This document shows positions 3,001-6,000 of a stretch of DNA of 10,715 nt, piece after piece. The position numbers are program-made. The stretch lies in the UHGV virus genome UHGV-0269425, one strand, 5' to 3'. Numbering within the stretch: the first letter of the stretch is position 1; each line of letters begins with the position of its first letter. Source of the stretch: a virus.

Positions 3001-6000
3001 CCCGGTGAGTTCAGCCCGGTGCCACTAAACCCGCGTCATTCTCGTTTTGATAATCAGAGATTATACCGTCACCAGTCGCCCCTCCGCTCAGGGGGATTCA
3101 CCATGCAGTTTTTTTCTAACAAATTCTTATCCGGGCAGACAACATTCAACTGACTTAATTGTGAGGTATGTAACATTCCTGTTGAACGGATACAAAAAAA
3201 GCCAGCCACCAGGGGAGGCTGGCAAACTCGTAGAGCAAAATGCTGTTACGCAAACTTCGTTACAGGGTTATCCTGCAATACTTAAAATATACAATATTTA
3301 GAAAACTAATAGTGCTATATGAGATTTTTAAGATTTTGTTATTAATTGCGGTCGTACCTTCCTTTCTGTGTACTTTCCGTATAGCTCACAGGATTCTGGG
3401 TACAAAAAAACCCGCGCATCGGCGGGTTCGGCTGCGTGGCAATGTAACCACTCTTATCATGATATGCAGATTTTTACGATCGTAAACTATTTTTTCGCTG
3501 ATAAAATACAGAGCTTCTCCCTCCCGGCAATTCACGCTCAACATACCGATCCATCTCAAGCCTCACTCCCAGCATCATCAGCATGCCTTCAACAATCCCC
3601 TCCGCTTTGTGAAGGCGTTTACCTATACAGGTGTCAGAGCACCCATGTTTCCGTGCCAGCGCCATGAACGTCTCCCCCAACACGTAGTAATCAACCAGCA
3701 AGTCATGCAGATCGCGATTGTTCCGGTAAAGGCGGGCTATGCACCCGCATATCACCATCGCATCATCGTCACAGCACTGTGGACGTGATTTTACTTTTTC
3801 GGGGATCAGTCCCTTAAATCCGGCAGCAATGGGCGACCATGTAACATCCTCATAGTTATTTACCGCCCATGCCCCCCAGCGCTCAAGAACCTGCCGGATA
3901 TCACGCATCAGTATCTTTACCCCATCCGCGATGAACCATAAGGACGCCATTGACGACGGCGTGCTTTTTCGCATCTTTATCATCAATGTATTTTCTGACT
4001 GTAGCACGATTGCAGTTCAGTATTCTGGCGACTTCTGTCTGATTTCCCCTGGTGCAGATCAGTAATTCAGGTATCGTTTGAATTTTAGCATTCATCAAAT
4101 GTTCTCCAGTTCGGTGATTTTTATCCCCACTCTACCGCCAGGCACTTTCACGCCGCGAATTACGCGAATGTCATCGAATTGCTCGTCGTCTTCCGCAAAT
4201 CCGGCGTGGATAAGAGAGTCGAGTAAACCTTTCAGGATGTTATCGAGGTCGCGACGGCGGGAATCTGGTGGTTCAGCAATAATTGTGATGCGAAGTCGTG
4301 ATTTAGTGAAAATGTCTAATCTGAGTTGCCGGATGATTTGCTGTACGTCTTTTCGGTATTTCTGGCCTTTATCGCTGATGTAGTACTGGCTTCCCCGTCT
4401 TCGCCAGTAGGTATTCACCGTCGGCGGCCAGGGAAGCACAAACTCATATTCATTCATGACTTAATCTTCCCCTCCTTCAGCAATATCGCCTGCGTCCTGA
4501 TCACGCCTTCCAGGTGGTAAAGTCTGGCGTCGTTGTTGTCGAGAATTCGGGTGCGTCGGTCGATCTCCGCGTGGCAGTCACTACAAGCCCATGCACCGAT
4601 CAGGTCGTCAGGCTTCATTCCCGTTCCGCAAATTCCAGCCATCCGGTAATGTGTCAGAACTGTCGTTTCAGGATTGCCATTGCATACGCCGTAAATCCGT
4701 ACCTGGCATTCTCTGCCGCGCGCTTCTTTGCGTAGGTTAGCCATTAAGCAGCCTCCCCTGTTACTTTCAGCATTCCGTTATCGAGCGGCTTTCTGGTCAG
4801 CCACTGTTGACCACGCCCGGTGATTTTTGTGGTGAACGAGATCTGTATTCCGTGATTTGTATTGACCGCTGTTTCTTTCACTGTGAAATAGCCGCGATCC
4901 ATATATTCCTGCATTGGCACATTGCGCCGGGAACCTGAAGCAATAAGGATTTTGTGATCGCGCATCCACGCAAACAGTTTGTTTGGACCAATACCAACAA
5001 CCTTTGCAAAGTTTCCAATCAAAATTCCGCTGGCCTCGCCAACTCGATCGGCAAACTCAACTTTAGGTGCTGCGAGAGCAAGCTGTTTCTCCAGTTCAGC
5101 CTTCTGGTCTTCAAGGTCGGCCGCAAGGCGCAATGCCTCAGAAAAGGTTTGTGGTATTTTCGCGGTTGCCCCTTCAAGCTCTCGCCAACGGTCAACAAGA
5201 CGAGCGGTGAATTCCGGCGACAATTGGGCGACGACAATAATGCTGTCTCGCTTACCTTGTTCGCCTTCGAAGACGTAAGCCTCGACACTACGGCGCAGTC
5301 CTAAGTTATTGATTTTTTCGAAAACCTGCAATGCAGGAAGTTGAATAACTCCAGATTCAGCCAGGCGCTCTATTGATATTTTTACGTTATCTGGACGACT
5401 CCCCACCAACTCAGCGATTTCAATGCTGGTCATTTTGATGATGCTGCTATTTATCAGCTCATTCATTGTCATGTCCTCTCATATTGAAAATTCAGCAATA
5501 AAAAACCCAGCCGAAGCTGGGTTTGTTAAGTTGTCAATTGTCAGTAGCGATGCAGTGAAGGCGGCAACTCTTTGTTCTTAAGCCTTTCCCATGCCAGAAG
5601 GTTCGTCGGCCCGTCAGGCTCATAAATATCTATATCCCGCGTGTGATTAATTAAAACGCCCCTCGCCCTCCCGATGATATACGAGAACTCATAGCCGTAG
5701 TCGTGGCATATGCCGGAATAGCCAGACTGAATCAGTTTTAATGCGGGATACAACTCACGGAACAATGCCTGTGAGCGGTTGGCATAATCCCACAGCCATA
5801 CAAGGCTGTCTGTTTCTTTTGCGGAAAGCCCGTTGGGCTTCTTCTCTTGTTTGCCAGTATTTTTCTCGCACTGGCTGAAATAGCAGTCTTCCAGTTTTTC
5901 GAACACATCCCACGCCTGATCGGTTTCTAGCATTTTGGCGTGACGGGCTGCGCCTCGTTCTGTCCAGAGGATGAGGGAGCGGGCTTTCGGGGAAATTTGT

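Follow-up and report, generated by a model that had tools for sequence, protein, structure and literature searches.

In their modular theory of phage evolution of 1978, Susskind and Botstein reportedly placed linker sequences in intergenic positions between functional modules. The immI locus of phages P1 and P7 is said to comprise the c4 antisense RNA, icd and ant, its mechanism being attributed to work by Citron and Schuster from 1990. Here, we describe a locus that can be compared with both: a stretch of 10,715 nucleotides from the virus genome UHGV-0269425 (in the following called the window), in which two predicted antirepressor genes, gene A and gene B, share a nearly identical segment of 111 bp (the island) within otherwise diverged coding sequences. 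The window is the nin/Q region of a lambdoid Escherichia coli prophage, and most of its genes are located on the minus strand. Gene A and gene B both encode an ORF6N and a P22_AR_C domain, and we refer to them as predicted antirepressors based on their database relatives ("phage antirepressor Ant") and by analogy to AnrP (PMC4825925).

Two published systems are closest to the features of this locus. Between diverged lambdoid sequences, homologous recombination is relaxed and often exchanges tracts of about 100 bp within genes (De Paepe et al. 2014, PMC3945230). In Salmonella, translation at the isrK-orf45-anrP locus of Gifsy-1 is under RNA control (Hershko-Shalev et al. 2016, PMC4825925, a study that does not address an intragenic island).

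As in the lambdoid mosaics, short conserved stretches embedded in diverged sequence would serve here as crossover sites between temperate phages and prophages. Unlike in these mosaics, one intragenic segment is reused throughout a whole family, between 19 N-terminal and 14 C-terminal types, at a domain boundary and with both of its edges mapped as junctions. With the linkers of the modular theory, the island shares the arrangement of a conserved segment between exchangeable modules that would provide homology for recombination, but it is coding sequence between two domains of one protein. We consider it probable that the island is a homologous-recombination and gene-conversion joint in the ORF6N antirepressor (Ant/AnrP-like) genes of E. 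coli/Shigella lambdoid phages and prophages. The mosaicism is clear but ordinary, a well-documented instance of a known phenomenon; the island itself is, to our knowledge, newly described, and a literature search returned no description of it.

The island in gene A and gene B

The two copies of the island (Table 1) are separated by 1611 bp, have the same orientation and are identical at 105 of 111 bases. The differences, four synonymous and two non-synonymous (Q/R and D/E), are located at island positions 27, 45, 54, 65, 75, and 78 in gene orientation, corresponding to window positions 5955, 5937, 5928, 5917, 5907, and 5904 in copy A. They leave runs of perfect identity of 26, 17, 8, 10, 9, 2, and 33 nt, the longest of which are the first 26 and the last 33 nt of the island. 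The flanking coding sequences are 67% identical on the N-terminal and 41% identical on the C-terminal side. In a 30-nt sliding window, identity amounts to 0.90–0.97 inside the island, compared with 0.10–0.57 just upstream and 0.30–0.50 downstream. Shuffling of the alignment columns in 20,000 trials never produced a 111-column window with at least 105 identities, neither for the whole gene nor for the ORF6N part alone. The identity of the island is far beyond chance.

The synonymous difference per site between gene A and gene B (Nei-Gojobori method) is lowest in the island (0.17) and reaches 0.65 in the N-terminal part (0.79 for codons 31–88) and 0.73 in the C-terminal part. Where both genes encode an identical degenerate amino acid, the codon is shared at 28 of 32 positions in the island, compared with 26 of 47 in the N-terminal part (Fisher p = 0.003).

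A preliminary description of the window had reported a near-identical 111-bp island with about six differing positions in diverged ORF6N paralogs. Both statements hold, the number of differences being exactly six. Low non-synonymous combined with high synonymous divergence inside the block, which this description had named as the sign of amino-acid constraint, does not occur: synonymous divergence of the block is low. Some details had to be corrected. The identical run at the ribosome-binding site and start codon, given as 28 bp, extends over 35 nt, and the diverged 5′ coding part measures 264 nt in gene A and 243 nt in gene B instead of about 330 bp. The 3′ ends, described as unrelated, are distant homologs that both match the Pfam domain P22_AR_C (E-values of 2e-24 for gene A and 2e-7 for gene B), with 21% amino-acid identity between the two C-termini.

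The scores for this domain (PF10548, cut-off 22.4) are 85.8 bits in gene A and 31.5 bits in gene B; those for ORF6N (PF10543, cut-off 27.8) are 72.0 and 69.3 bits. In gene A, the ORF6N match stops at residue 105 and the P22_AR_C match begins at residue 134. The island thus includes the final part of the ORF6N domain and about 20 conserved residues beyond it, reaching as far as the inter-domain linker; no other peptide of ORF6N is as conserved as the 37 residues that it encodes. No relative was found when the PDB was searched by sequence, and the AlphaFold2 model of the protein (mean pLDDT, the predicted local distance difference test, of 42.9 from a shallow alignment of 18 sequences) was too poor for use.

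Flanks and exchange in the phage population

Comparison with other phages and prophages revealed a mosaic pattern around the island. BLAST searches of phage genomes returned matches restricted to the island at 90–97% identity in Shigella phage 75/02, phiON-2011, P13374, and Yersinia phage vB_YpM_39, while many further matches end precisely at the 3′ boundary of the island. Among 5426 complete E. coli genomes, 714 carry it, in 1082 copies altogether (at most five per genome) and always with 90–100% identity. In phiON-2011, an O104:H4 Stx2 phage, the island-bearing ORF6N gene is antB1 (positions 12272–12946 of the record); it follows a Rha gene and antB2 in the early-left region, close to recT and kil. 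The genomic contexts into which the gene carries the island are thus quite different.

We collected a pool of 82 unique genes whose island matches that of gene A at a minimum of 100 of the 111 positions and clustered their N- and C-terminal parts at 85% nucleotide identity. The resulting 19 N-terminal and 14 C-terminal types occur in many combinations; type N2, for example, is found with five different C types. The C-terminal modules of the pool comprise P22_AR_C, Rha, and two classes without Pfam match. Regardless of whether the fraction of identical codons in the N-terminal part is 0.2 or 1.0, that of the island stays at about 0.85. Where the members of a pair differ on both sides of the island, mean identity increases from about 0.35–0.55 (up to 0.75 in an 18-nt shoulder) to 0.98 at codon R89 and drops from 0.82 to 0.22 right after Q125.

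Individual recombinants have junctions at these edges. The locus L117 also shows the two-cassette layout of the window. The downstream one of its genes, L117_+2244, is 100% identical to cassette A in the upstream 320 nt, the island, and the C-terminal module, and its N-terminal segment is 99% identical to that of gene B. Based on informative sites, the breakpoints lie between +15 and +27 and between +264 and +291 of the coding sequence, the second interval spanning the first 26 nt of the island. In L130, the N-terminal part and the island of gene B are joined to the C-terminal module of gene A at the island 3′ edge. The junctions of both recombinants fall where the longest identity runs between gene A and gene B are located.

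Exchange is also evident within the island. The pool contains 36 polymorphic island sites in 55 haplotypes (nucleotide diversity pi = 0.0555). All four gametes are present at 107 of 190 pairs of common polymorphic sites, and linkage decays from one end of the island to the other. Toward the 5′ end, polymorphic sites tend to follow the N type, and sites 99–111 are almost completely associated with the C type; the difference counts by island thirds show the same trend. The alleles L089 and L088 differ at none of 294 positions in the N-terminal part, at 9 of 111 in the island and at 2 of 327 in the C-terminal part (Fisher p = 1.3e-6). Three further allele pairs show this behavior (Fisher p from 1.3e-6 to 2e-3 over all four), and some alleles with identical flanks differ from each other by 5–9 substitutions confined to the island. 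Of 46 near-identical allele pairs, 28 have their highest divergence in the island. This pattern is typical of short conversion patches and opposite to the one expected from purifying selection at the nucleotide level.

Truncated ORF6N genes are found just upstream of a complete copy in the loci L123 (about 1421–1735), L121, L147, L120, L149, and L040. They retain the N-terminal part and approximately the first 69 nt of the island, followed by unrelated sequence (…GATCAGGC directly joined to TTGACG…), and look like scars of illegitimate joins inside the island.

The spacing and common orientation of the two copies, the recombination gene ninB between them, the nearby RusA gene, and the existence of A-type/B-type recombinants elsewhere would agree with a recent gene conversion between the two copies within this prophage. 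However, their island identity of 94.6% equals the pool mean of 94.45%, and the six remaining differences are spread across the island. Moreover, the island of gene A is fully matched by that of L117_+2244 (100% identity) and differs at no more than one position from that of L084, and the island of gene B is 100% identical to those of L130 and L117_+654. Because each haplotype is found in other genes, each copy represents a common pool haplotype and not a copy of its neighbor, and we regard recent local conversion as highly improbable.

Protein constraint, RNA cassettes and nucleotide-level elements

For an analysis of codon choice, loci were fetched by degenerate peptide patterns derived from the island, so that this sample, comprising 204 unique complete genes, is unbiased with respect to codons. 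The island peptide is extremely conserved, from Enterobacterales to Acinetobacter, Chromatium, Roseospira, and Halodesulfovibrio, with a consensus that includes (E/D)TDxAWxVFExLEDxYF. Given this conservation and the three non-degenerate codons among the 37 of the island, amino-acid constraint and codon bias alone could be thought to produce the near-identity without any recombination. The synonymous difference per site in the island (0.17 compared with 0.65–0.79 alongside) speaks against this explanation, as does the same-codon fraction at identical amino acids, which within the pool is about 0.85 (pairwise mean) compared with 0.37 expected from the codon usage of the pool genes themselves. 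Codons 17–31 provide an internal control within the pool: their amino-acid identity is 0.89 and their same-codon fraction only 0.46, whereas the island reaches 0.96 and 0.85.

Outside the E. coli-type pool, the same peptide shows a same-codon fraction of 0.40–0.48, equal to that of the N-terminal part and not far from the expected 0.37. Measured against gene A, the island value declines with host distance, from 0.81 in the Yersinia phage to 0.66–0.72 in Pectobacterium, 0.65 in Salmonella, 0.39–0.55 in Serratia and Photorhabdus, and 0.32–0.52 in Acinetobacter and Chromatium, while the N-terminal value is flat (0.33–0.59). Since codons 17–31 are conserved in the protein yet diverged in their codons, and since other genera vary the codons of the island, protein constraint alone is insufficient to explain the island, and we consider such an origin of its identity extremely improbable.

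Both genes are preceded by a complete RNA cassette on the minus strand (6298–6519 and 7889–8112), consisting of a promoter-like site (TTGACG, 18 nt, TATATT), an isrK small RNA (sRNA) with the a1/b1 targets, a terminator, and a C4 antisense RNA. Upstream of gene A and gene B, respectively, the Rfam model of C4 scores 66.7 and 66.0 bits (gathering score 45) and that of isrK 75.5 and 69.2 bits (gathering score 50). The c4-a1b1 model (gathering score 46.7) exceeds this threshold with 50.5 bits in cassette A and falls just short of it with 44.2 bits in cassette B. The presence of isrK/C4 cassettes ahead of each gene explains the other conserved upstream patches.

In cassette A, a1 and a2 read AUUGGCGUC, opposite the a′ sequence ACGCCAA; in cassette B, they read AUUAGGAAC, opposite GUUCCUAA. 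Between the cassettes, the changes in a1, a2, and a′ compensate for each other. GAAACC at the ribosome-binding site is the pairing partner of the b′ loops, and loop and leader co-vary across 10 loop variants. These sequences suggest that two RNA immunity specificities are adjacent in one prophage.

As in immI of P1/P7 (compared through the Rfam families RF01695 and RF03163), a C4-like RNA is located ahead of a predicted antirepressor gene, with a1/b1 before it and a2/b2 near the ribosome-binding site, and the a sites and a′ co-vary between the two cassettes of the window as they do between P1 and P7. In contrast to P1 immI, where the downstream gene encodes Ant1/Ant2, it encodes an ORF6N/P22_AR_C protein here; the cassettes lie in the lambdoid nin region. 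The order of promoter, IsrK sRNA with terminator, conserved RNA region read as orf45, ATGA overlap, and antirepressor-like gene is that of Gifsy-1 (PMC4825925), from which the window differs by its two tandem cassettes with different C4 a/a′ specificities.

The frame corresponding to orf45 overlaps C4 and ends in the ATGA overlap (6242–6415 and 7832–8005, minus strand); it is open over 57 codons in cassette A but interrupted in cassette B, where it contains several stops. The control of the two cassettes may differ, provided that translational coupling through this orf45-like frame is of importance. As the 35-nt start patch also contains the ATGA overlap, nucleotide-level constraint is plausible there, unlike in the island.

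Because both genes are part of presumably RNA-regulated cassettes, and because codon identity in the island far exceeds the level that amino-acid constraint maintains in other parts of these genes, one might think of a functional element at the nucleotide level (an RNA structure, a C4/IsrK target, or a protein-binding site) that keeps the synonymous sites of the island constant by purifying selection. A further point in favor is that the loop of C4 hairpin 2, UCGGUUUC, is exactly complementary to GAAACCGA in the island (5920–5927 and 7531–7538). RNA folding of both copies on both strands, with and without 19-nt flanks, nevertheless gave z-scores of only 0.0 to +0.8, with different minimum-energy folds for the two copies. 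A search of Rfam in E-value mode yielded nothing meaningful in the island, its only match being one at chance level to mir-74, overlapping 5824–5900 on the plus strand (E = 0.3, 22.5 bits compared with a gathering score of 57). Neither promoter-like nor terminator-like sites were found in the island, and the window has no Chi site. Alternative reading frames that start inside the island (5755–5913 and 7309–7524, minus strand) have residues in common only where the nucleotides are common and diverge immediately after.

The sequence GAAACCGA represents the E-T-D codons of the island; it is the exact complement of the cassette A loop and pairs with the cassette B loop with one wobble. Each of the 10 loop variants of the pool pairs with 5–9 nt of its own leader, but the loops do not pair with the island (mean of 4.9 nt compared with a null value of 4.43, P = 0.06). 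RNAduplex was uninformative on the long sequences, as it permits long bulges and ignores intramolecular structure. A C4/IsrK target in the island was rejected, since the 8-nt loop match is kept in no consistent way across the 10 loop variants; we take the complementarity as coincidence because it is not maintained.

Further evidence against an element comes from the pool, in which 12 genes carry the island without a detectable C4 hairpin upstream, 27 of 34 degenerate third positions of the island are polymorphic, and flank-identical alleles differ more in the island than in the flanks; in other genera, its codons vary freely. The island shows no constraint at the level of individual sites, and we judge an element of this kind to be very unlikely.

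The preliminary description had proposed recent gene conversion or recombination, or else a constrained nucleotide-level element. Of the former, recombination stands as a process in the phage population, based on the reassorted flanks, edge junctions, and conversion patches, whereas a recent conversion between these two copies does not, nor is the element supported. The described patchwork of high and low identity is accounted for by the 35-nt start patch and the island, which bracket a swappable N-terminal segment.

The proposed joint, its setting and its meaning

A joint for recombination and conversion could have arisen as follows. The island encodes a nearly invariant peptide at the end of ORF6N, just before the linker to the C-terminal module. 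With nearly every non-synonymous change forbidden, alleles that are otherwise saturated would keep identity runs long enough for recombination, such as those of 26 and 33 nt found here. Recombination between co-resident or co-infecting phages would use the island as a crossover zone. In swaps of the N-terminal segment, the conserved ribosome-binding site and start region would serve as the left homology arm and the island as the right one; in swaps of the C-terminal module and downstream sequence, the island would be the left-hand arm. Short conversion patches would also fall within it. By repeated exchange, the island would be kept as one well-mixed pool with about 5% diversity, while the flanks would persist as many deeply diverged types. 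The enzymes involved would be phage Red/RecT-type recombinases, with NinB/Orf and RusA encoded in the region, or host RecA. Exchange may in this way maintain the very homogeneity on which it depends, by a feedback that could be either selected or neutral.

Several points weigh against this reading. The observation that the island is about 95% identical in E. coli/Shigella-type phages regardless of the flanks is partly circular, since the pool was defined by island identity to gene A; the flank reassortment, the mapped junctions, and the conversion patches are independent of this definition. The sample contains IMG/VR contigs without host assignment, and retrieval by peptide patterns makes the amino-acid conservation of the two search motifs partly a matter of construction. 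Because module types have no homology in their 3′ flanks, a swap of the C-terminal module needs a second crossover further downstream. Codons 17–31 are not homogenized as the island is, which may be due to the length of the segment and its position between the arms. Finally, a nucleotide-level function restricted to E. coli phages is formally still conceivable.

It could also be that the island is a selected linker in the sense of Susskind and Botstein, whose identity is kept because it promotes modular exchange and not as a by-product. Its edges coincide exactly with the domain boundary, it joins at least four unrelated classes of C-terminal module, and together with the 35-nt start patch it brackets the swappable segment. 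However, the data do not distinguish whether exchangeability is under selection or whether a neutral feedback links identity to recombination, and the polymorphism of about 5% over most synonymous sites gives no sign of sequence-specific selection; we therefore consider this quite unlikely. Taken more broadly, selection in E. coli lambdoid phages, be it on an intragenic linker that re-pairs recognition domains with effector modules and C4 immunity cassettes or on a pool-specific nucleotide-level signal, is an unlikely reason for the identity. We prefer the interpretation of the island as a recombination and conversion joint.

The coordinates of all features are listed in Table 1. The arrangement of KilAC antirepressor, ORF6N antirepressor, NinE, NinB, second ORF6N antirepressor, and toxin-antitoxin genes recurs with 94–97% identity in E. 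coli NCCP15648 (L283) and FORC_069 (L284). Over window positions 5400–8200, none of the complete E. coli genomes is a full match with at least 99% identity. Its presence in complete E. coli genomes indicates that the tandem pair is a stable layout and not a one-off duplication. The toxin-antitoxin pair and the DUF4145 gene are probably accessory (moron) or defense genes inserted in the nin region. The strong match to the sRNA STnc100 sits between Q and the gene for the NanS-p-like esterase, where Stx phages would have the stx genes.

Table 1. Features of the window, in order of position
Feature	Positions	Strand	Remarks
NanS-p-like esterase	797-2707		
sRNA STnc100	2929-3135	minus	167.8 bits, gathering score 47
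Antiterminator Q	3474-4007		
RusA	4095-4457		
KilAC antirepressor	4744-5472		
Gene A, predicted antirepressor	5541-6245	minus	234 amino acids; ORF6N + P22_AR_C; N-type 6, C-type 0 in clustering
C-terminal module, gene A	5541-5870	minus	P22_AR_C, type C0; population identity at background right after island
Island, copy A	5871-5981	minus	codons 89-125 of gene A
Variable N-terminal segment, gene A	5982-6233	minus	swappable cassette between conserved start region and island
35-nt identical run, cassette A	6234-6268	minus	C4 b2 target (GAAACC, 6262-6267), Shine-Dalgarno sequence, start codon
C4 antisense RNA, cassette A	6298-6381	minus	a′ ACGCCAA 6320-6326, b′ loop 6333-6340
isrK sRNA and a1/b1 targets, cassette A	6407-6496	minus	promoter-like site 6519-6490, terminator 6428-6412
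NinE	6520-6702		
NinB	6699-7109		
Gene B, predicted antirepressor	7164-7835	minus	223 amino acids; ORF6N + P22_AR_C; N-type 3, C-type 3
C-terminal module, gene B	7164-7481	minus	diverged P22_AR_C, type C3
Island, copy B	7482-7592	minus	codons 82-118 of gene B
Variable N-terminal segment, gene B	7593-7823	minus	99% identical segment within otherwise A-type cassette in L117
35-nt identical run, cassette B	7824-7858	minus	b2 7852-7857
C4 antisense RNA, cassette B	7889-7973	minus	a′ GTTCCTAA 7911-7918, b′ loop 7925-7932
isrK sRNA and a1/b1 targets, cassette B	7999-8089	minus	promoter-like site 8112-8083
Gp49/HigB-like toxin and helix-turn-helix antitoxin pair	8017-8782	plus	directly upstream of cassette B
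DUF4145 protein	9009-9755	plus	after toxin-antitoxin pair

The general interest of these findings is modest, since the phenomenon is already established (PMC3945230). For annotation, they imply that near-identical islands in prophage paralogs need to be checked against population data before they are read as hidden RNA elements. The antirepressor alleles of Stx prophages and of Shiga toxin-producing E. coli are chimeras, so that typing them from only half of the gene misleads. In these proteins, the N-terminal segment and the C-terminal module seem to be functional units, each of which can be exchanged without the other. The island would thus be a well-resolved illustration of domain shuffling by temperate phages inside one regulatory gene: an extremely constrained peptide gives the homology, recombination keeps it uniform, and the flanks diversify.

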